DNA of 64,000 nucleotides from Alphaproteobacteria bacterium (GCA_020848095.1 JADLAT010000002.1:21293-85292), one strand, 5' to 3'. Counted from the first letter of the stretch, positions 3,901 to 24,343 are shown. Numbers and translations are program-made. The notes: generated by a model not told the origin, from the sequence alone.

Positions 3901-6900
3901 GGTTATTGACCCGGCTATTCCGGCGACACAGCTAACGGCACGCGGCGTGCTTGATCTGGGCGCAGCCACAGATGCGCTTATCCTCCCGCGGGGAACAACT
4001 GCGCAGCAACCCGTCGCTCCCGCGGGCGGCATGATTCGCTACAACACAACGGCCACACCAAAAGATAAAGTCGAGTACTACGACGCAGAATCCACAAGCT
4101 GGATTCAACTCAGCGATGGAACCGGCGGTGCCACCCCAGCCGGCGCTGACCGTGAAATCCAGTTCAACAATAATGGTGTTATGGGTGCAAGCGCCGCGTA
4201 TAAGCTTATGGCTGATGGCGATCTGCTCCTGACAGGAGCTCATACCGGTACAGCCAGCGTTCCCGTTTCCGGTGCTGGTTCACGCATGTTTTTTGATGCA
4301 CAAATGAGCGCGTTCCGAGCCGGGTATGTAAATGGAACACAGTGGAATGATGTCAATATCGGCAATTACAGTACAGCATTCGGATTCGGCACAAGGGCCA
4401 GCGGTGATTCCAGCACAGCAATCGGAAATACAGTACTAGCCAGCGGTAGCAACAGCACGGCAATCGGATTTGGAACACTGGCCAGCGGCAGCTCCAGCAC
4501 AGCAATTGGAGCTGGAGCGGTAGCCAGTGGGACAACAAGTATAGCCGCGGGTGCATCAACGACAGCCAGCGGCATTTATAGCATAGCGATGGGGCGGGCC
4601 GCCGTTGCAGGAGATGGAACCGCCGGAAACGGACTAGGCGATGGCTCCATGGCGATTGGTCTTGTTGATGACAGCATTACCATTACAACAAAGCCCAAAG
4701 TTACAGGAATTCAGTCACTCGGCATTTTCATGGGTGATCAGGACGGCGGTGTTACACTGGCGGATCAAAACACCATGGGCCTGTTCGGCGGAAAAATGGT
4801 TATTGATCCGGCGGTTCCGGCAACGCAGCTCACCGCACGCGGCGTACTTGACCTCGGCGCGGCGACAGATGCCCTCGTCCTGCCCTCCGGCACGGATGCC
4901 CAGCAGCCTGCAGCCGTGAACGGGATGCTCCGTTACAACACGGACAATGGCAAATTCGAAGGCTATCAGGCGGGCGCATGGCAGGACATCCTGACCAGCG
5001 CCATTGCAGGCGGCGCAGCGGCCCCGGACCGAGGTATCCAGTTTAACAATAATGGAGATTTCGCGGCTGATGCTAAATTCACCTACACCACGGATGGCGA
5101 TTTGATTGTCGGCTCAAACCAGATCGATGACACCACCACGGGAACAGAAGATTCCCGCATGTATTTCGATGTGTCCAACAGCGCCTTCCGCGCGGGGAGC
5201 GTTACAGGCGGGGAATGGAACTTCGCGAGCGCCGGAGCGTACAGCGTGGCTTTCGGCTACAATACCATTGCGAGCGGGGTTCTTTCATTTGCAGGAGGAG
5301 ATTCCTCCACCGCGACAAATGCTTTCAGTTTTGCTTACGGCGATCAAAATGATGCGACAGGCCAAGCCAGTACAGCTTTTGGATCCAACAACAATGCATC
5401 AGGAGATTACAGTATTGTTTTTGGATCCAACAACAATGCAACTGGAGGCCATAGTTTTGCCGGTGGGGGAGATTCAATATGGGCAACAGGCGATTCATCT
5501 TTTGCATGGGGGAACTCTTCCCGCGCTGAAGGGGATACAAGTATAGCGATAGGCAATAATGTCAAATCGAGCGGCGTTTACGGGACGGCGTTTGGCAACA
5601 AGGTAGTTGTTGGCAACGGTACAGCGGGCAGTGGTTTTGGCGATGGATCCATGGCGATTGGTTTGATTGATGATGCGGTAACGATCACGACAAGGCCGCA
5701 GGTGACGGGAATCCAGTCGATGGGTATCTTCATGGGCGATCAGGATGGCGGTGTCGTGCTGGCCGATCAGAACACAATGGGCCTGTTCGGCGGCAAGATG
5801 GTCATAGACCCGGCGGTTCCGGCAACGCAGCTCACCGCACGCGGCGTGCTTGACCTCGGCGCGGCGACGGACGCCCTCGTCCTGCCCTCCGGCACGGATG
5901 CCCAGCGCCCCGGAACGCCGGCTGGCGGGATGATCCGCTATAACACAACGGCCACACCAAAAGACGTCATAGAATATTACGACGCAGAAAGCACAGCATG
6001 GATTCAGGTTCCTACCTCTACGACATCCACCCCCGCCGGCGCCGACCGCGAAATCCAGTTCAACAACGCGGGCGTTATGGGCGCAAGCGCCACGTATAAA
6101 CTTATGGCTGATGGTGATTTATTGCTCACAGGAACCTATACTGGTGTTGCCAGTGTTCCCGTAAGCGGCGCAGGAACGCGCATGTTTTTCGACACGCAAA
6201 CATCCGCTTTCCGCGCCGGGTATGTAAATGGAACACAGTGGAATGATGTCAATATCGGCAATTACAGCACAGCAATGGGCGCCAGTAACATTGCAAGCTA
6301 TAACTATGCTGTTGCCCTTGGACAGCAAAACACATCAAGCGGTTCGGCAAGCATAGCACTGGGCTCTTCAAATACAGCAACGGGTAGTGGCGCAAGCGGA
6401 GCGACAGCCATCGGATACAATAATTACTCAATGGGCGATGGCTCAATGGCTTTAGGAAAGAACAACAGCGTTACAAACCATGCCGGTTTTGCGATAGGAT
6501 CATACAATAATTCAGATGGCGAGAATATGGCCCTTGGCTTCTATGCCGATGTCACGGGAGGCGGCTCTATTGCTATTGGAGCCAGCACTGTTGACCCTGC
6601 CACGGATCCTGTCATTTCCGGCGCCCAATCCTTCGGTGTATTCATGGGCAATCATAGCGGCGTAGATTTTTCTGCGGCGAATACGGCAGGATTCTTCGGC
6701 GGAAAAATGGTTATTGATCCGGCGGTTCCGGCAACGCAACTCACCGCACGCGGCGTGCTTGATCTGGGCGCAGCCACAGACGCCCTCATCCTCCCCTCCG
6801 GCACCGATGCGCAACGCCCCGGCACGCCCGCAGGTGGAATGATCCGCTATAACACAACAACCACACCAAAAGACGTCATCGAATACTACGACGCTGAAAG

Positions 6901-9900
6901 TGCGGCATGGATTCAGGTCCCGTTCGCTACAACGGCTGCGCCCGCCGGTGCTGACCGCGAAATTCAATTTAATAATGCGGGTGTTATGGGCGCAAGCGCC
7001 GCCTATAAACTCATGTCAGATGGCGACCTGCTCCTTACCGGAACCTATACAGGCACAGCCAGCGCCCCTGCCACTGGCGCTGGAACGCGCATGTTTTTCG
7101 ATACACAATCTGCTGCCTTCAGAGCTGGCGGCATCACAGCCGCACAATGGGATACGGCCAGTCTGGGAATTTACAGCGTAGCCTTCGGCAAAGATACAAC
7201 AGCCAGCGGAAGCTACAGCGCGGCCTTCGGCCTAAGCAGCACCGCCAGCGGTACACAGAGTTTCGCCGCAGGCAACACCGCCATCGCCAGCAACTCTCAA
7301 AGTGTGTCCATGGGGAATACAACCACCGCCAGCGGCCTCCGAAGCGTTGCCATGGGCTTTACCACATCTGCAACCGCGGCAAGCAGCGTGGCCATGGGAA
7401 ATACCACGCTGGCCAGCGCGACAAACAGCGTTGCTATGGGAAACGCCACGCAAGCCACAGGCGCACACAGCGTCGCCATGGGCAGCTCAACCATCGCCAG
7501 CGGCTCGGCCAGCACGGCCATGGGTGTTTCTACCGTTGCCAGCGGCTGGAATAGCGTTGCCATGGGAAATACAACCACAGCCTCCGGGGCAGGAAGCGTC
7601 GCATTAGGAAGCATCACCACCGCCAGCGGTATTGCCAGCACCGCGCTGGGTGTAAGCGTAGCTGCAGGCGATGGAACTGCGAACAACGGAAAGGGCGATG
7701 GCTCCATAGCCTTCGGCCTGATCGATAATGCCGTTACCATCACCACCCCCTCTCAAGTAACCGGCATTCAATCCATGGGCATCTTCATGGGCGATCAGGA
7801 TGGGCTGGTCGTCTCTGCCGATAATCAAATGGGCCTGTTTGGCGGAAAAATGGTCATTGATCCAGCAATCCCGGCAACGCAGCTCACAGCCCGGAGCGTA
7901 CTTGATCTGGGCGCGGCAACGGATGCGCTTGTTCTACCCTCCGGCACAACCGCGCAGCAACCGGTCACCCCCGCCGGCGGGATGATCCGTTACAACACAA
8001 CGGCCACGCCAAATGACAAAGTCGAATACTACGATGCAGAATCCACAAGCTGGATACAGTTAGGCAGCGGCGGCAGCGGCGGAGCCGCGCTCTCTGGCAT
8101 CACCGCAGCGGTAGCTGCCAACACCATTGGCTCCGGTGATTACGCGCAGGCCTGGAACTGGACACTCACCACCGCAGCAAAATCCGCCATGACGTTCGGC
8201 GAAACTCTGGCCGCCACAAATGGTGCGGGCGCACAATCAGTCGTAAAAATGGCAACACTGGCTGCCTCCACCGCCATGCCCCTCTGGATTCAAAATGCCG
8301 GCAATGGGCTGTCTTTCCGGGTCGATGATGCCGCTTCCGATACAACCCCATTTGTAATTGATGCTGATGGCAAAGTGGGTATAGGCCTAAGTGCCCCAAC
8401 GGCTCCGCTGCATATAAAGGGCGCAAATGCGAATGGCGAATACCTCTTAGCCATGCAACAAAACGACCAGCACGCCGAATATATACAGATGAAAAACTCT
8501 GCAGGAACAACTGTTTTTGATATAGCGGGCTCATGGGGTTTCCCTTACATTAACCTCAGTGACACCTCTGGAACCGCTCGTGTCTCACTAACTACAGGGG
8601 GAGCCGCAGGACCACATCTTGTCGTCTTAACCTCCGTTAACAGACCTGACGGAGGAGAGCCCTACGGATTTGGTATCCGTGTCAATTACCCCAACAGTAT
8701 GGAAAATGGAATTATATTCGGCGATGGGAGCGGAAACGGTGCCTACGGCTCCGCTATTACAGGATATGACGGAGACTCGGGCGGATCGACTGACAATGGC
8801 GGCCTGCGCCTCAAGACAGGAAATGGAGTGCGTCCTACCACACGGGTACAAATTGACCCGGATGGAATAACCCGGTTCACCACCGCAGGCGCAATTGTTC
8901 TCCCCTCCGGCACCGATGCGCAACGCCCCGGCACGCCCGCCGGCGGAATGATCCGTTACAACACAACCGCCACGCCCAATGACAAAGTCGAGTATTACGA
9001 TGCGGAATCCACAAGCTGGATTCAATTGGGCAGCGGCGGCAGCGGCGGCACCATAGATGGCCTGACAGACGGAATAACCGACTATACCACCGACTTTAAT
9101 CTCTTCATGGGGCAAAATGCGGGCGCGGCCATTGCGGCAACCGGGCAATACAATCTGGCCATCGGCCAAAACGCCGGGGACACAATTTCCTCAGGTGATA
9201 GAAACATCGCCATCGGATACGATGTTCTAACCACCGGCGCAACAATGTCTGATAACATCGGCATTGGCTATAACGCGCTAAAACTCAATCAATCAGGGGG
9301 CCAATCCAACGTCGCTATCGGCGCATACGCTCTGGATGCCAACACGACAGGCGACACCAGCATCGCCATCGGCAAGAATGCTCTGGGGGGCAATCAAGGC
9401 GGCGGCGCCAATATTGCAATTGGGGAAGACGCACTTCTTTCCAACGTATCGGGCGTTGATAACGTTGCCATCGGGCCATGGGCGCTGGACGGCAGCACAG
9501 GCGACCGAAATCTGGGGATCGGCAGCGATGCACTGACCTTAACCACAGGAAGCGATAATATCGGCATCGGCTACCTCGCTGGGAACAACCTCACCAGCGG
9601 CAGCGGTAACATCATCATCGGATCCTCAAACGCAGCCACCACCGCGGGCGGAAGTAACCAACTCGACATCGGTGATACAATCTATGGCGACCTGAGTGAA
9701 AAACGCATTGGTATTGGCGCCGTTCCCGCCGCGGGCGTAGAACTGGATGTAACAGGCGACATTCAATACACAGGCACCCTCACCGATGTCTCCGATATGC
9801 GTCTGAAGAAAAACATCAGACCTCTCGGCAAAATGTTAGCTAAAATCAACCAGGTCAAAACCTACAGCTTCGTAATGAAGGACGATCAGGCAGGGCGCAC

Positions 9901-18800: not shown

Positions 18801-21409
18801 ACAGTGTCACCACCTGTGAGCTTGTCATTACCTGCTGCGCCCATTAAATACCCAAATGAAGTTGTTGCTGTATTTGCATCTATAACATCATCACCTGGCG
18901 TACCCTTTAGCTCATAAGGCGTTCCACGAATCCCTCTGTTATTCGGGTTATAAGCCCTAAGCACGTAATTTTCATCAAAATATCGCCCATCGGAAAATAC
19001 AATTTCAGGTGCTTCAGTAAAATTATCAGCCTTAAGCAAATCTGTAATAAAAATGGAGCCACGACCAATAACCTGAACAGATAAATCAAAGTGTATTCGC
19101 CCAAGTTCATCAACAGGCTCAACATTAACTTCATTAATTCTCACATCACCGGGCTCAATGAGGTGTTCCATAAACAAGACCCTAAGGTTATCGGGCCCAC
19201 CACCTGTAGAAATCACGTCATTACCACCACGGTAAGTAATAACATTGTTAGTCCTCAACGTAACGTGATCATCTCCCAACCCCAATTTAGCATAACCTGA
19301 ATCATTGAGGATGATATTGTCTCCATTGTTAGTGCCAATAATAACGGCAAACTGATCAACGCTATCTGTGTTTATACCATCAGTAACTTTCCCTGTTATA
19401 AAGTTGGCGGTGATACTTCGCTCTAGAGAAGAGTAGTCGTATGTTGCTCCTCCTTGATAAACTCGACCAAGATCATGAATTTCAATGACGGACCCTCGGT
19501 TAATATCATTTATTGTTTTTATAATTTCGACATTTATAACCTCTATAGCACCCTCTATTTCGATCTTATCAGTGCTCACAATCATGTCAGAACTCTCAAC
19601 AATTAGTGTATCAATTCCATCTCCACCATCATAAATCCGCCCCCCCAAATATAAACTATTGGTCGCAACAAAAATTTCATCATCAAAAGAAGTCGCTATG
19701 ATCCGTTCCATTCCATCAGCATCTTCCTGCGCACCACTGCCGTCTATGATGTCCGAAAATCTCGTAATTTGAATTCTTGCGGCCTCATCAGCATAGCTCA
19801 GCGTATCAAACCCTAAACCGCTGATGAACCTATCTACTCCTGCCCCGCCAATATAGATATCATTCCCAAAACCACCATACAGAATATCATCACCATCTCC
19901 GCCAACTAGGATATCATCCCCAGCACCACCGTTAAGGATATCGTTACCCATCTCTCCATAGAGCGTATCCTGCCCCTCTCCACCATGCAGAAAATCGGCG
20001 CTGGAACCGCCCCTGAGCGTATCGGCACCGCCCATTCCAAATTGTACTTGAGAGCCAAAAACGGTTTGCGTATTATCATCTCCCGCAGAGCCAACATAAT
20101 ACGTAAAGGATTGATCAAGTGTTGTCATCTCCCCCTCCTGCAACGCAAAAACAACCCGATCGGGAAAAACCACGCCTTGGGATGACAATGACATCGTACT
20201 ATAGATATTATTATAATCACCAGCGTGATTAAGGATGCCATTAAAGATAGCATCTCTGGCAACAATACGTGCGTCAAGACCACCCAGACCCACAGTATCT
20301 AGCCAGTAAGGCACGCTTAGATCAATAGAGAGACTATGTTCTGTCGCATTATTGGTGAAAGTCAAAAGACCATCTAGAGCGGGGTCACCCGCGCCAGCAC
20401 TCCTATCCTTCGCCAGCGCCAATCCCCCGGCGAAGGCGACGATATTTTTGCTGATATCGGTGCCGAGCGTTTCAACCACACTGCCCGCCCCTGCAAGGGT
20501 TATCGCACTGCCCAGATTATTCGCATCGTTATACAGCGCCCGAATAGCTGTATCACCGAACGGGCGTGTTGTGCCTTCGTCAATGGCGGAATAGGCGAGG
20601 ATGGTGCGTAATTTATCAGACGGCGAACTTGCGCCAGCCAAATCAACCCCAATAGATGTGGCAAACGTGTCATCGTATAAAACATCCCACATATATGAAG
20701 AGGCCGCCTTCCAATCCGTCTGCGCCCCGATTTCTGTCTTCGCATAAAGCCCCAAAACGAGCGTAGCTTGCGAGTGCAGATCAACAGCACCTAAATTCGA
20801 CTTATCACCAATATCGACATTAACCAAAGTACTTGGATTGCTAGGAGAAAAAGGTGTCATACCACTTAAAACTTCCCCCTCAACACGATAGGCACCGATA
20901 AAAATATTGCTGTAATCGCTAACCAATTCCGATGCCGCATCTTCATAATCCATGGAATCGTATATTAAAGCCCGCACTGCACTTGGCTGGCCGCTGATCG
21001 CCGCCACCAGCCCCGCCAGCCCGCCGCCCAAGGAATGACCCGTTGTTGTAATGGACGTGCTGGTTGCATTGACAACTTCGTTGTAAAAATCGATTGCCAT
21101 CTGCCCTTGCGCCCCTTCAAAACCACCGCCAAGCGGCCAGCCGTGAAGACCATCCTTCACCAAATCATCCGTACCGCGATACGCAATGGTCGTCTGCCCG
21201 TCATAACTATACGCCAAGGCGTAGAAACTTATATTTTCTGCATCCGCTTGACCCTTCGTCTGCAAAATTGTTGCAGTACCTATTTGAGTAGTTGGAAGAT
21301 CAAATGAATAGTTGTTCGTTCCAGGGTTATCTCCAAAAATCAAACCTGCACCATACCCACGGTTATAGGCATCCATACTTAATATTGCGTGCATCAAAGC
21401 ATTGTTCAT
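15812..21409 (-). CDS. Class-3 lipase domain fused to a very long RTX (hemolysin-type Ca-binding) repeat region, with a type I secretion C-terminal target domain
   Basis: N-terminus: ILSMDAYNRGY...ISFYALAYSYDGQTTIAYRGTDD...TTTGHSLGGGLAG (nucleophile elbow) ...GAVDLHS. Then dozens of GG.G.D.L nonapeptides. C-terminus: DIIRDWGTGGAADSLSIENMLSGYDP...VIIKIDRDGSATNYDWQDLVRVEGQAGLDLQVLLSNGQMSVV, resembling the VC_A0849-type T1SS target domain. Confidence 0.85.
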   Translation of the reverse strand: MNNALMHAILSMDAYNRGYGAGLIFGDNPGTNNYSFDLPTTQIGTATILQTKGQADAENISFYALAYSYDGQTTIAYRGTDDLVKDGLHGWPLGGGFEGAQGQMAIDFYNEVVNATSTSITTTGHSLGGGLAGLVAAISGQPSAVRALIYDSMDYEDAASELVSDYSNIFIGAYRVEGEVLSGMTPFSPSNPSTLVNVDIGDKSNLGAVDLHSQATLVLGLYAKTEIGAQTDWKAASSYMWDVLYDDTFATSIGVDLAGASSPSDKLRTILAYSAIDEGTTRPFGDTAIRALYNDANNLGSAITLAGAGSVVETLGTDISKNIVAFAGGLALAKDRSAGAGDPALDGLLTFTNNATEHSLSIDLSVPYWLDTVGLGGLDARIVARDAIFNGILNHAGDYNNIYSTMSLSSQGVVFPDRVVFALQEGEMTTLDQSFTYYVGSAGDDNTQTVFGSQVQFGMGGADTLRGGSSADFLHGGEGQDTLYGEMGNDILNGGAGDDILVGGDGDDILYGGFGNDIYIGGAGVDRFISGLGFDTLSYADEAARIQITRFSDIIDGSGAQEDADGMERIIATSFDDEIFVATNSLYLGGRIYDGGDGIDTLIVESSDMIVSTDKIEIEGAIEVINVEIIKTINDINRGSVIEIHDLGRVYQGGATYDYSSLERSITANFITGKVTDGINTDSVDQFAVIIGTNNGDNIILNDSGYAKLGLGDDHVTLRTNNVITYRGGNDVISTGGGPDNLRVLFMEHLIEPGDVRINEVNVEPVDELGRIHFDLSVQVIGRGSIFITDLLKADNFTEAPEIVFSDGRYFDENYVLRAYNPNNRGIRGTPYELKGTPGDDVIDANTATTSFGYLMGAAGNDKLTGGDTVRHIEGGTGDDLLIAGSFGSRLLGGSGKDTLLGNEGNDTLDGGLGNDELHGGAGDDTLYGGFGDDFLDGGAGNDFLYGGDSYSSDLGQDTAVFSGFSQNYSILDAVNAMKITDNVGLDGVDWLYEVEYAQFSDGTYDFSAGVFIPLTTLNVINGTSSGDNIVGGDGDDVIYGLGGHDKLFGKDGDDIINSDDGNDEGYGGKGNDTLNGGAGADTLRGDDDDDIINGGEGNDLLRGNRGADILHGDGGDDQIFGNEGGDTLYGGAGNDTLRGNGGNDIIYAGAGDDINVYGDDGNDELHGDAGNDIIRGGEGQDTIYGDAGDDKLYGREDNDVLYGGDGNDTLNGGNSDNDTYSSDDVLNGGAGNDTLRGGKGDDVLNGDEGNDALHGDAGNDILNGGAGDDTLRGYDGDDVYVLSAGNDNILDSSGSADVLKLSGGVSLENISFAANAANSNNLEITLDGGASSTLIYGQNSASNVKIEFIELGDGFRFNFAQFANWVMGSAGNDVKTGGAGDDILIGLGGNDVLNGGAGHDTLVGGGGNDTLQGGNGNDILYGGEGGDTLSGGAGDDRYFYTIGLDTITDISGIDSVAFAQGITIEDLGFSVSGNDLVITVAGNAANRLVLKDQLLAGAAVIETLALSDGTTLDISGFAAWVIADGSGGIANGDVPGALADFILGSNAGEELRGKALDDVIHARGGNDTIRGGDGADTIYGGSGNDTILADDGSSNANDTAFGGEGDDEIKGFGGDDSLYGDAGADKIYGGDGDDILSGGAGLDELRGEAGDDTLYGGDGADKLIGGDGADALYGGFDNDSIYGGEGADNLYGESGDDYLRGEAGDDMLYGGAGDDELRGDAGNDTLYGGTANDILYGLDGADHLYGGEGLDYLFGGTGSDVFHFDGNAIFNENGLIDDTDIIRDWGTGGAADSLSIENMLSGYDPLSSTLSDFVQATDTGSDVIIKIDRDGSATNYDWQDLVRVEGQAGLDLQVLLSNGQMSVV

Positions 21410-22122
21410 TTCTCTTCTCCTTGCTTAAATCTTCCATAGTGTAAAATATTTGATAATTTCAATGAATGTGTTGTTTTGCTACCATCCAAAGTTCCTTGTT
21501 TCACTTGAGGCAACCAAGGAAGAATTTCATTTATTTTCCACGTCACCGGCTCATCCACAATCTCGATGACTATGTCTTTGATTTGCATACCATCACCAAA
21601 CTGTTCTGCAAATCGCCTGACAGGCACTTGTTTTTGTGTCTCTGAATTGAATTTCCAGCCTTGAACAAGCGTCACAGATTTCGGATCATCCCTCTCTGTA
21701 AAAGTTACAAACATCGGCCAGTTCTCTTCCGGCAATGCTGCCTTTGCCCCTGTTTTTAGCCTGTCAAAACCTTCTGTGGTATTGGAAGCATTTGCAACGC
21801 CAAATGCGCTATATAGTTCTCCGTACGATCCATGCTCGATAAGCCCAAAAACCACGCCGCGCGCTCCTAAATCCACCACAACCGCTTCACCCTTAACGCT
21901 GCTGATCCGTGCGCCCGCTTCCGGAATTTTTTCACCAAATATCGTGTTATCACGGTTCGTGACCTCCCGCACCGCCGAGCCACTTTTGATCCCCTCCGGC
22001 GTTTCAATATTGATCGTTATTTTGTAATTCCAGGAATATTGATCAAGACCAACTTGAACAGCCGCATAAGCCGCAACAACGCTGACGACTAAAATCCCCA
22101 AAGCAATGAAACTTACTTTCAT
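21406..22122 (-). CDS. Signal-anchored hypothetical protein, partner 1 (candidate cognate immunity/accessory protein of the lipase)
   Basis: N-terminal TM/signal segment MKVSFIALGILVVSVVAAYAA. ATGA overlaps at both ends (22119-22122 and 21406-21409). Paralogous to 22666-23382, sharing YSW.YK.T..IETPEGI.SGSAVREV and GEAVVVDLG.RG. No known family recognised. Confidence 0.6.
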   Translation of the reverse strand: MKVSFIALGILVVSVVAAYAAVQVGLDQYSWNYKITINIETPEGIKSGSAVREVTNRDNTIFGEKIPEAGARISSVKGEAVVVDLGARGVVFGLIEHGSYGELYSAFGVANASNTTEGFDRLKTGAKAALPEENWPMFVTFTERDDPKSVTLVQGWKFNSETQKQVPVRRFAEQFGDGMQIKDIVIEIVDEPVTWKINEILPWLPQVKQGTLDGSKTTHSLKLSNILHYGRFKQGEEK

Positions 22123-22676
22123 GCTGCTTTCCTTACATCTTGTTCATTGTCATTCACGGCTTTAGCATAAAGCATGTCTTCCCGCTCCGCCAGCCCGCCA
22201 CCGAGAGAGTGACCTGTCAGGCTCACATCCCCCGAATAAATATTACCAAGACCGCCGCCGAGAGAATGCCCGGTAAAAGAGATATCGGCCGTATAGGAAT
22301 TTTCCTGACCGCCAATTACATTATGATAAAACGCGAAGGCCATTTGCGCCTGCCGGGCCTGTGTCGACCCGCCACCAATGAACCAGCCATTCCAGACATC
22401 ACCATCAGTCCACAGGCTGGTCCAGCTGCCAAAGGGATCGTCCGTCCCGCGATAGGAGATGATCTTTTTACCGTTATAATCATATGCAAGGGCATAAAAG
22501 CTAATATCGTCATCCAACCTATCATTTCCGTCCTGAAAAATCCTAGAATCAACTACTATGGTTGCATTGCCAACTTGCACTCCAAAATCGCTGGGCAACT
22601 CAATAGCGCGATCATACCCCCTATTGTATGAGTCCATGGATAGAATAGCATTGAAGACATTAAGATTAAGTGTCAT
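22119..22676 (-). CDS. Truncated class-3 lipase N-terminal cassette (L2); ends shortly after a duplicated GHSLGGGL motif and lacks the Asp/His part
   Basis: Aligns with residues ~1-135 of the 1,865-aa protein (AILSMDSYNRGY, ISFYALAYDYNGKKIISYRGTDD). It then reads FTGHSLGGGLGNIYSGDVSLTGHSLGGGLAERE... and stops. Confidence 0.7.
   Translation of the reverse strand: MTLNLNVFNAILSMDSYNRGYDRAIELPSDFGVQVGNATIVVDSRIFQDGNDRLDDDISFYALAYDYNGKKIISYRGTDDPFGSWTSLWTDGDVWNGWFIGGGSTQARQAQMAFAFYHNVIGGQENSYTADISFTGHSLGGGLGNIYSGDVSLTGHSLGGGLAEREDMLYAKAVNDNEQDVRKAA
22204..22257. repeat. 54-nt repeat, copy A, spanning lipase nucleophile-motif codons
   Basis: 51 of 54 positions are identical to 23475-23528 in my hand alignment. 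It encodes GNIYS(G/A)DVSLTGHSL. Confidence 0.85.
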
Positions 22677-23382
22677 TTTTTCTCCCTATTTTAAATTGAA
22701 GCAAATCAGCTTTTAGCATTTTTTCTTTTAAACTAGCTTCTTGCCACCACTCTTTAAAATTTTCGTAATATTCATCCGTTAAATATTCATCAATTTTTTG
22801 AGTGATTGACTCCTCCGTCATTTCAACTGTAATGCTCTTTAACCTCACGCCTCCTCCGAAATATTCCTCAAAACTGTCAACTTGATCTTGTCCGTTTGCA
22901 TATGTTTTATCAACATAAACAAGCTTTACAGTTTTTGGATCGTTCATATCTGTGAACGTTACCATTTTGGGACAATAAGGATGGCCATCACATTTAAATT
23001 CCGTCTTACTTCCAACAGGTAATTTTGCAGCATTTTCATATCCTGTAACATCAAAAGCACGCAAAACATCGGCATAAGCCCTATCATCGATCAAAGCAAA
23101 AATCTTGCCGCGCTCACCAAGGTCAACAACGACAGCCTCTCCGGAAACATTTCTTTTTGTCGAATAATGAGGCTTCTTATTAACATCACTCCAACCAATT
23201 ACTTTTTGGGTAATATCAACCTCCCGCACCGCAGAGCCGCTTCTGATCCCCTCCGGCGTTTCAATCTCCACCGTCATTTTATAGCGCCAGCTATAAACCT
23301 TATCCTGCTCCCGTTGCGATGCCGCAAACGCCACAGCCCCCGCAATCAGAACAAGTGCCAGTGTCATAAATCCATATTTCAT
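22666..23382 (-). CDS. Signal-anchored hypothetical protein, partner 2 (paralogue of 21406-22122)
   Basis: ATG 23382 is preceded by GAGGGA; the ORF track starts at 23400. TM/signal segment MKYGFMTLALVLIAGAVAFA. Shares the ETPEGIRSGSAVREV and GEAVVVDLGERG blocks with partner 1. Its 3' end overlaps the start of L2 by 11 nt. Confidence 0.6.
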   Translation of the reverse strand: MKYGFMTLALVLIAGAVAFAASQREQDKVYSWRYKMTVEIETPEGIRSGSAVREVDITQKVIGWSDVNKKPHYSTKRNVSGEAVVVDLGERGKIFALIDDRAYADVLRAFDVTGYENAAKLPVGSKTEFKCDGHPYCPKMVTFTDMNDPKTVKLVYVDKTYANGQDQVDSFEEYFGGGVRLKSITVEMTEESITQKIDEYLTDEYYENFKEWWQEASLKEKMLKADLLQFKIGRKNDT

Positions 23383-23413
23383 GAATTCCCTCGTTCGCAT
23401 AATTTATTCAGCA

Positions 23414-23699
23414 CTAATGTATGGTTGTGTGTGTGTCAAACTTTTTACTGACCATCCCACCAAGACCACCACCAAGAGAGTGACCTGTCAGGCTCACATC
23501 AGCCGAATAAATATTACCAAAACCGCCGACGACTTTCTGATAAAACGCGAAAGCCAATACACCTTGGTCGACATCCGGCGCCCCAACACCAACACCATAA
23601 CGATGCAAAGTATCTAAAGGTACATTATCCGCCCCCCCGGTAAGCGATAATAGTTCCCGCACCGCCTATATTATAAGAACCGCTACAGCCTGATGAGAA
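23414..23699 (-). pseudogene. Third class-3 lipase 5' cassette (L3): lacks its own N-terminus, frameshifted, ends after GHSLGGGL
   Basis: In one frame, ...SYNIGGAGTIIAYRGGG stops. In the next frame, GADNVPLDTLHRYGVGVG...AFAFYQKVVGGFGNIYSADVSLTGHSLGGGLGGMV. Together these align with lipase residues ~65-135. The frames join at a C7 run (G7 on the coding strand) at 23632-23638. Confidence 0.7.
23475..23528. repeat. 54-nt repeat, copy B (see 22204-22257)
   Basis: Same as copy A with 3 mismatches. Confidence 0.85.
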
Positions 23700-24098
23700 T
23701 ACGTTTAATTCCAGCCCTTTCATTATTTTATATGCGTAATTATCGCTCCAGCGCTCTTTATTGAGTTCGTGCCATTCCAGCGCCACGGCTTTGAAGGTGT
23801 TCTCTACTTTGCGGATAGCTTGGCGTTTGTTGTCTTCCTTGTGCGCCATGGGGTCTATGGGCGGGTTTTGAAGCAAAAGGCGTTTTGCGTTGTCTCTGGC
23901 CTGCCGCGCCTCTGCCAGCGATATGAGGGGATATTGCCCTATTGAGAAAACCTTCTCTTTTTTCAGGTAACGATATTTGAGTTGCCAGAGCTTTGAGCCG
24001 TTTGTTCTCACCAGAAGGTACAGGCCCCCACCGTCAAACATCTTGTATTGCTTGTCTTTGGGTTTGGCGCTTTTACAGGCTAAATCGCTTAATTTCAT
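23700..24098 (-). pseudogene. int: Tyrosine integrase, P4-like; N-terminal (DUF4102-type) ~133 aa only, catalytic domain missing
   Basis: MKLSDLACKSAKPKDKQYKMFDGGGLYLLVRTNGSKLWQLKYRY...FKAVALEWHE...WSDNYAYKIMKGLELNVF is the typical N-terminus of tRNA-associated island integrases. Homology stops near nt 23700, where the ORF runs into lipase-cassette sequence. Confidence 0.8.
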
Positions 24099-24268: not shown

Positions 24269-24343
24269 TGGTGGGCGGTACAGGGATCGAACCTGTGACC
24301 CCTAGCGTGTCGAGCTAGTGCTCTACCGCTGAGCTAACCGCCC
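24269..24343 (-). tRNA. tRNA-Val (anticodon GAC), CCA encoded; anticodon loop reads TCGACAC (C at position 33)
   Basis: Reverse complement: GGGCGGT TA GCTC AGCGGTA GAGC A CTAGC TCGACAC GCTAG GGGTC ACAGG TTCGATC CCTGT ACCGCCC A CCA. The cloverleaf is perfect. Confidence 0.85.

Follow-up and report, generated by a model that had tools for sequence, protein, structure and literature searches.

Layout of the lipase/partner locus

The 64,000-nucleotide (nt) stretch of Alphaproteobacteria bacterium DNA analyzed here (GCA_020848095.1, JADLAT010000002.1:21293-85292; hereafter the window, in whose positions the coordinates of its features are given) comes from a Micavibrio-like predatory bacterium and contains a full-length lipase-RTX gene, L1, preceded by an array of lipase fragments (L2 and L3) and genes for a partner protein family, I (I2 and I3). 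The lipase and partner genes lie on the minus strand, where the order is tRNA-Val(GAC), a truncated integrase, the L3 fragment, I3, the L2 fragment, I2 and full-length L1. Within L2, the nucleophile elbow GHSLGGGL is present twice, and the DNA that supplies the second copy closely resembles the end of L3. As developed below, this insert is probably the scar of an ectopic, misaligned recombination event beside the catalytic-serine codons. The features of the locus are as follows.

24269-24343, minus strand: tRNA-Val(GAC), the island border
23625-24098, minus strand: truncated P4-type integrase with the Arm DNA-binding domain only, adjoining tRNA-Val
23414-23699, minus strand: L3 lipase fragment, truncated at both its 5' and 3' ends, frameshifted, matching lipase-model positions 83-152
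23462-23518, minus strand: L3 elbow with the segment before it, GNIYSADVSLT-GHSLGGGL, of the type that supplied the L2 insert
23417-23461, minus strand: L3 tail, GGMVSKKFDTHTTIH, with a (TG)n run at ~23424-23437
22666-23400, minus strand: I3, an I2 paralogue (41% identity), likely start ATG at 23382
22119-22676, minus strand: L2, a 185-aa truncated lipase head with an intact open reading frame, lacking Asp151 and His212
22248-22271, minus strand: native nucleophile elbow of L2 (copy A, GHSLGGGL), whose last codons plus GGT form the left microhomology
22191-22247, minus strand: 57-nt in-frame insert, GNIYSGDVSLT-GHSLGGGL, with elbow B at 22191-22214
22161-22190, minus strand: L2 tail, AEREDMLYAK, after elbow B
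22122-22160, minus strand: in-frame leader, AVNDNEQDVRKAA, whose stop overlaps the I2 start (ATGA at 22119-22122)
21406-22122, minus strand: I2, a 238-aa signal-anchored partner and presumed immunity protein, directly upstream of L1
15812-21409, minus strand: L1 lipase-RTX gene, full-length, 1865 aa

From I3 to L1, neighboring genes overlap: the L2 stop and I2 start share the ATGA at 22119-22122, the I2 stop and L1 start overlap at 21406-21409, and I3 and L2 share 11 nt (22666-22676), an arrangement that suggests translational coupling of I2 to L1 and of L2 to its neighbors through overlapping starts and stops. The elbow of L1 lies at 21017-21040 (Ser126), with Asp151 within 20951-20965 and His212 within 20756-20782. 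L2 and L3 stop before Asp151 and so cannot be active enzymes; both fragments also lack His212 and the RTX and type I secretion system (T1SS) part. Elsewhere in the same genome, contig 11 (locus L008:8315-9275) encodes another I paralogue of 221 aa, the genome's third, and after it a lipase stub of 91 aa that breaks off before the elbow, right after an RGTD motif.

The second elbow of L2 was copied from L3-type sequence

Around the duplication, L2 reads …ISFT-GHSLGGGL-GNIYSGDVSLT-GHSLGGGL-AEREDMLYAKAVNDNEQDVRKAA and then stops. The first-pass annotation, which had recognized the double elbow, had described a 54-nt block at 22204-22257 as 51/54 identical to the end of L3 (23475-23528). A recount returned exactly these values and the L3-like origin of the insert stands, whereas its size required revision, the actual inserted unit being 57 nt or 19 codons long (GNIYSGDVSLTGHSLGGGL). 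The full similarity tract (repeat family D8) extends over 22192-22261 and 23463-23532 with 63/70 identical positions and, in agreement with the earlier statement that the two cassettes are otherwise dissimilar, local DNA alignment of L2 and L3 yields this tract only, with sharp edges. Also as described, both truncated copies stop just past the elbow: 23 codons separate elbow B from the end of L2, and 15 codons separate the L3 elbow from the end of L3.

Elbow-anchored comparison of the lipase copies locates the likeness more precisely. Over the 24 elbow nucleotides every pair is 16-20/24 identical, whereas over the 33 nt that precede the elbow L2 copy B and L3 agree at 31/33 positions and every other pair at 9-18/33; in the six post-elbow nucleotides, L2 copy B agrees with L1 at 5/6. 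The tandem copies A and B within L2 are only 44/70 identical, and copy B therefore does not derive from copy A. Rather, it was copied from L3-type sequence, as the similarity between the two is far beyond chance. A search of the 1.99-Mb genome with the shared segment (blastn-short) returned no copy beyond the L2 and L3 pair, which rules out a dispersed repeat; a widespread repeat unrelated to the lipases, the finding that the first-pass annotation had named as speaking against its own reading, was thus not seen.

Both junctions lie in glycine codons

At the left junction, L2 reads …CTC GGC GGC GGT CTT GGT (SLGGGLG) and L3 reads …GTC GTC GGC GGT TTT GGT (VVGGFG), and local DNA alignment reveals a 15/17-nt microhomology between them (TCGGCGGCGGTCTTGGT versus TCGTCGGCGGTTTTGGT). 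This match of glycine codons implies that the cassettes paired 57 nt out of register. The proposal of recombination at the elbow between cassettes consequently holds as regards the position of the insert, beside the serine codon, but the event was an out-of-register join and not an in-register crossover at the motif.

At the right junction, copy B follows L3 through GGT CAC TCT CT and continues with GGT GGC GGG CTG GCG G, which matches L1 (GGC GGC GGG CTG GCG G) and the consensus GGGLAG rather than L3 (GGT GGT GGT CTT GGT G). On the coding strand the insert is therefore L3-like for ~45 nt and then L1- or consensus-like (GGC GGG CTG GCG), with a second switch point ~10 nt 3' of the serine codon, and within ~100 nt L2 is a mosaic of L2, L3-like and L1/consensus-like sequence. 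The insert is in frame, and L2 therefore remains translatable up to the stop that overlaps the I2 start; that only an in-frame scar has survived may reflect selection for translational coupling.

No inverted repeats were found at either junction examined, and in the 158 related loci introduced below the flanking 5-6 kb or so contain nothing homologous to the island integrase, observations that together rule out a site-specific mechanism. Nor does the array resemble an integron or shufflon, as junction positions vary over 0-15 codons and the sole nearby integrase is truncated.

Related loci carry arrays with recurrent post-elbow junctions

Scans with I profiles across species-representative genomes (78 loci, with Micavibrio and other Alphaproteobacteria among the sources) and metagenomes (80 loci) gave 158 loci, designated here by L and three digits, and hidden Markov models (HMMs) of I and of the lipase head were mapped on six-frame translations of these. 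Matches to the lipase head were found in 5/60 relatives, four with a full-length gene and one with a stub only, and in each an I gene lies directly upstream, as it also does in those genome-collection loci that contain L. Arrays of repeated units of I plus lipase stub that end in a full gene are common (L023, L024, L033, L039, L041, L053, L054 and L055), and the window's displaced layout, L3'-I3-L2'-I2-L1, is matched in L023, L041, L053, L054 and L055; in no locus examined is a full-length L directly followed by I-L.

Frames that contain the elbow are bimodal, as they either stop 22-31 residues past the last elbow start or continue into a long gene or to the contig end. Nine stubs from five genomes stop at 22-31 residues, two in the window, three in L053 and one each in L023, L039, L055 and L078. 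Among stubs followed by another I within 500 nt, 9/27 end 0-10 model positions after the elbow, compared with 1/54 terminal stubs (Fisher's exact p = 1.4e-4), counts that are approximate, as a few of the metagenome loci repeat loci of the genome set and one genome contributed both L053 and L078. Across 18 full-length heads, the two most conserved 30-nt windows of DNA are YNRGY (0.73) and the elbow (0.72), against a mean pairwise DNA identity of 0.38 overall, which bears out the earlier claim of conserved DNA at the nucleophile elbow.

A parallel comes from L053, an uncultured alphaproteobacterium, where direct repeats of 230-280 nt that are 75-92% identical separate the units (4262-4489, 5714-5996 and 6981-7260). 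Each starts ~30 nt before the elbow and covers the elbow, leader, spacer and I signal peptide, and the cassette interiors differ. This locus is an independent replicate, in which the window's 70-nt patch is present in longer form.

Most I genes that have no full lipase gene precede a very short lipase stub ending after AILSMDxYNRGY(D/G)AG (for example L039:1483-1572, L037:5855-6001, L105:4231-4314 and L033:6416-6538). This end is a second junction hot spot, located at the other of the two most conserved DNA islands of the head. In some arrays 2-4 I paralogues follow one another directly or with no more than a lipase stub of 13-25 codons in between (L037:5855-7408, L024:4136-7543 and L039:749-2300).

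An in-frame leader connects the stubs to the next partner gene

Most array-internal stubs are followed, in frame after the elbow, by a short leader of the form A(A/V/E)NDN…(K/R)xAA, whose stop overlaps or shortly precedes the start of the next I gene and whose codons vary at synonymous positions. Besides the leader of L2 in the window (22122-22160), stop-terminated variants read AVNDNNQDIRKAA in L039, AANDNQQQMKKRAA in L023, ENDNFNITKSQVM in L053, VNDNHCAIKSKVA in L055 and ANTNNPVSKNLTFRKKCAA in L122. Leader sites in related loci include the following.

L039:735-776
L023:~4965-5005
L097:~2490-2530
L078:~660-699
L075:~5755-5796
L028:~5955-5995

The leader is joined to the lipase at points other than the elbow as well. 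In L078 it directly follows YNRGYV, in L097 it follows FVQF (model position ~372), and in L075 it is attached at the first RTX repeat. The L075 version, ANDNI, lines up with GNDLL in the second RTX repeat of the adjacent full-length gene, and by its sequence the leader may derive from an RTX nonapeptide (GNDxL). The right end of the junction is thus nearly constant and the left end variable, a pattern that fits either one old junction spread by recombination or nested deletions onto an RTX-derived, glycine-rich site. Complete genes also end in …AA, so that the leader might be taken for the native C-terminus of the upstream lipase gene; they have, unlike the leader, a ~90-residue T1SS domain after the last NDN-type motif.

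Between elbow B and the leader, the L2 tail AEREDMLYAK is probably a degenerate lipase continuation, being colinear with AGLVGATYAK of full-length homologues and sharing (L)YAK with it. The tail of L3, for its part, is unlike the NDN-type leader and holds a (TG)6 dinucleotide run; its GGMVS..KKFD may be a shortened form of the native GG(Y)VA…KLFD(A/N)M segment.

L1 is a predicted type I-secreted phospholipase and I is its likely immunity partner

L1 contains 25 RTX stretches (HemolysinCabind, E = 1e-151) and a C-terminal TIGR03661 T1SS target domain (31.6 bits versus a cut-off of 17.6), from which it is predicted to be type I-secreted on an RTX chassis with a T1SS domain. Its N-terminal head scores 19.4 bits against Pfam Lipase_3, under the 22-bit cut-off, and the L2 head 23 bits. 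The sole PDB relative of the L1 head by sequence profile is the Enterobacter cloacae type VI secretion system (T6SS) lipase effector Tle (E = 4e-5), and a structural model of the head of moderate quality (predicted local distance difference test, pLDDT, 67) matches phospholipase A1 enzymes and Tle with a Foldseek probability of 1.0. Throughout the 18 full-length homologues, which share the GHSLGGG elbow, Ser126 and His212 are invariant and Asp151 is nearly so. We therefore predict that the L1 head is a class-3 (Tle-like) phospholipase of the alpha/beta hydrolase fold, with its Ser/Asp/His triad assigned by alignment.

I2 and I3 are 41% identical, and about 40% is the usual value for I paralogues within an array. 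The family model, built from 69 aligned sequences, is of high confidence (pLDDT 90, predicted template modeling score 0.83) and presents, for I2 and I3, an N-terminal hydrophobic helix followed by a confidently modeled, mainly beta-strand domain. Searches of Pfam, NCBIfam, PDB sequence profiles and, with Foldseek, PDB structures gave nothing significant; a LolA/LolB-like fold was considered and set aside, as the best Foldseek matches reached only E = 4e-3 with TM-scores of at most 0.2. I appears to be an undescribed protein family spread over Alphaproteobacteria and beyond, and it is most likely a periplasm-facing partner and immunity protein.

A proposed displacement-built array and its alternatives

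We propose that the L2 insert is the scar of an ectopic, misaligned recombination beside the serine codons, within an array built by displacement in which conserved lipase DNA provides the homology, a reading that we consider likely on the present comparisons. In the tRNA-Val island, older units of I plus lipase head would have come to lie upstream of the current I2-L1 pair, and the array would probably owe its growth to homology-facilitated illegitimate recombination, in which conserved lipase DNA anchors one end and microhomology closes the other. In L2, glycine-rich codons would have allowed 57 nt from the end of an L3-type cassette to be attached behind the native elbow, and copying would have returned to L1/consensus-type sequence inside the next run of glycine codons. 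This could have happened through a microhomology-mediated join that placed a segment comprising an L3-type end, the leader, I2 and L1 behind L2, or, fitting equally well, through a two-step event, template switching or gene conversion, with L3 as the source and L2 as the recipient. Later reshaping would take place between conserved head islands, chiefly the TGHSLGGGLAG(L/Y)VG block at the elbow and AILSMDxYNRGY near the N-terminus. Taken alone, a scar of this sort is commonplace; its setting is not.

Several observations weigh against this reading or narrow it. The prediction that breakpoints in related loci center on GHSLGGG was borne out by the post-elbow excess, but not as an exclusive focus, as breakpoints cluster to a similar extent after the N-terminal AILSMDxYNRGY and the remainder are scattered. 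HMM local alignments moreover have a bias toward terminating at conserved motifs, so that clustering looks stronger than it is, and direct sequence reading confirmed the elbow-class ends but covered the N-terminal class in part only. The elbow-class junctions of L053 (three), L055 and L078 are of one type and may descend from a single event. The double elbow recurs in no other array among the 158 loci and is thus a one-off, a same-genus genome has no lipase homologue, and the metagenome scan with I2 gave no close relative. The seven differences in 70 nt between L2 copy B and L3 mean that the event was not recent or that the donor was not L3 but a related sequence, and the fold of I, whose immunity role is presumed, has no PDB match by Foldseek. 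Finally, the exchange of heads between cassettes that the first-pass annotation envisaged was not borne out: among 16 full-length genes no mosaic gene or discordant head/body pair was found, a comparison of little power at pairwise identities of 32-59%, and the heads are not more variable than the bodies (mean identity 46% versus 40%).

The same junctions could in principle have arisen by decay alone. In such a scenario, tandem longer lipase genes lost the interiors of their upstream copies with no import of cassettes, through nested deletions between glycine-rich 'A-G' sites (YNRGYxAG, GGGLAG, AGLVG, FVQFAG) and the RTX nonapeptide (…G-N-D-x-L) before the next I; the post-elbow cluster would reflect microhomology between elbow and RTX codons, and the L2 insert would be a by-product of glycine-codon mispairing. 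It accounts well for the occurrence of the same leader after lipases broken at YNRGYV (L078), the elbow, FVQF (L097) and the first RTX repeat (L075), for the colinearity of the L075 leader ANDNI with GNDLL, and for left ends placed just where A-G or G comes next in the native sequence. Yet no locus preserves a full-length L directly before I-L, the leader comprises ~13 codons as opposed to the ~90-residue T1SS domain of complete genes, the ~40% identity of in-array I paralogues would make the duplication ancient, and deletion alone leaves the 31/33 identity of L2 copy B and L3 unexplained, so that we regard this scenario as unlikely. Slippage within L2, with its likeness to L3 due to convergent constraint, or an artefact of assembly is extremely improbable. 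The insert does comprise exactly 19 codons in tandem and is flanked by GGCGG/GGTGG repeats, but duplication by slippage is ruled out by the closer match of copy B to L3 (63/70) than to copy A (44/70), the likeness resides mainly in weakly constrained pre-elbow codons (31/33), synonymous sites included, and 100% rather than 90% identity would be expected from a chimeric assembly.

Other explanations assign the array a function. A programmed or high-frequency switch, comparable to pilin-type antigenic variation or orphan Rhs activation, would fuse a silent head (L2 or L3) to the expressed RTX body and change the toxin/immunity specificity. The L2 open reading frame is indeed intact and apparently coupled in translation (two ATGA overlaps and the 11-nt overlap), post-elbow junctions recur, the L053 inter-unit repeats are long and highly similar, and recombination-dependent expression of orphan Rhs toxins under selection sets a precedent (PMC3967940). 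Against this, the elbow homology of 16-20/24 nt between the window copies is a poor RecA substrate, the 16 full-length genes include no mosaics, L3 is frameshifted and 5'-truncated, and the junctions vary by 0-15 codons, lack inverted repeats and have no island-type recombinase near them in the 158 loci; we judge such switching very improbable. A related and more speculative proposal, in our estimate improbable, is that the elbow-plus-leader junctions are functional recombination modules of an undescribed, mirror-image polymorphic lipase/immunity system of predatory and other Gram-negative bacteria, fusing silent upstream heads, along with their partner genes, to a single RTX chassis at the elbow, within the catalytic domain. 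If true, the outcome would be chimeric enzymes and, in a population, changes of toxin/immunity type.

Relation to known toxin/immunity systems

The closest published architecture is that of TslA/TilA of Staphylococcus aureus, a type VII secretion system (T7SS) phospholipase toxin with a reverse domain arrangement (Garrett et al. 2023, PMC10730906). As in L1, an N-terminal phospholipase precedes a C-terminal secretion domain, and, as in the I array, the toxin gene is directly preceded by an immunity gene and, beyond it, by a varying number of non-identical immunity paralogues; recombination across a stretch of conserved sequence reshuffles the immunity genes (PMC10730906). TslA is, however, a Gram-positive T7SS substrate with a helical, LXG-like tail, whereas L1 carries RTX repeats and TIGR03661 and is a predicted T1SS substrate. 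The TilA immunity protein is a DUF576 lipoprotein, whereas I has no Pfam, NCBIfam or PDB match, and the description of TslA/TilA (PMC10730906) includes neither lipase-head stubs between immunity genes nor junctions at the nucleophile elbow.

Displaced units of toxin fragment plus immunity gene beside a full gene, as seen here, are characteristic of the orphan arrays of contact-dependent growth inhibition (CDI) and Rhs systems (Poole et al. 2011, PMC3150448; Koskiniemi et al. 2014, PMC3967940), whose fragments likewise keep a short conserved junction sequence; in Rhs, recombination there can fuse the orphan to the main gene. The locus shares with such arrays an adjacent partner gene, stacked pairs of a fragment and an intact partner, and a conserved junction segment. 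Its polarity is nevertheless mirrored, as the variable part of CDI/Rhs proteins is C-terminal with orphans downstream, whereas heads and partners lie upstream here. Furthermore, the CDI/Rhs junction coincides with a domain-boundary motif (VENN, PxxxxDPxGL), whereas it falls inside the catalytic domain, at the serine elbow, in the present locus, and CDI/Rhs toxin domains are unrelated folds, whereas the heads here are all homologous lipase halves with a mean identity of 46%. Polymorphic toxins are further defined by hypervariable or unrelated C-terminal toxin modules on a conserved delivery part, whereas the toxin part of L1 is N-terminal and the heads, at 46% identity compared with 40% for the body, are not the more variable part. 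The locus is thus a mirror-image variant of displaced toxin/immunity arrays and not a member of that class.

With regard to mechanism, the T6SS arrays of Vibrio cholerae provide the nearest parallel (Kirchberger et al. 2017, PMC5361080). They grow by inserted effector-immunity modules with retention of old immunity genes, and homology-facilitated illegitimate recombination without a dedicated integrase has been proposed for them (PMC5361080), in parallel with the mechanism suggested above. They differ in their secretion system and in their opposite gene order, and in the window the illegitimate junction can be read directly, as a 15/17-nt microhomology with a 57-nt duplication. At the level of the enzyme, the solved structure nearest to the L1 head in both profile and fold is that of Tle from the E. 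cloacae Tle/Tli pair (PDB 7ubz/9cys; PMC11470151): Tle is a class-3-like alpha/beta hydrolase with its serine on a nucleophile elbow and a periplasmic immunity partner. The Foldseek identity between Tle and the L1 head is, however, only 21%, Tle is delivered by the T6SS, Tli is described as entirely helical (PMC11470151) whereas the I model is mainly beta-strand, and no head-stub arrays have been described for Tle/Tli. A T1SS/RTX chassis, head stubs between partner genes, elbow junctions within a catalytic domain and a conserved in-frame leader were not found in the papers cited above.

The scar provides a direct record of rearrangement in a toxin/immunity-like array: its sequence still shows where the microhomology lies, which tract was copied and where the copy switched. 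More generally, the arrays upstream of lipase-RTX genes in Micavibrio-like predators are organized around two conserved DNA islands of the enzyme, one of which encodes the catalytic serine, and the displacement model developed for CDI, Rhs and T6SS loci would, in parallel with TslA/TilA, extend to N-terminal toxin domains on type I-secreted proteins. If the I proteins are immunity factors, the arrays would record the lipase variants that this predator lineage has carried or met. The model predicts that deletions joining one elbow to another should occur and that each I should be specific for its own lipase head.

In addition to the shared lipase tract, I2 and I3 have in common a 77-nt stretch that is 82% identical (21962-22038 versus 23219-23295) and encodes the most conserved motif of the family, ETPEGIxSGSAVREV. 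It recalls the ~130-nt conserved central stretch at which S. aureus til1 recombines (PMC10730906).

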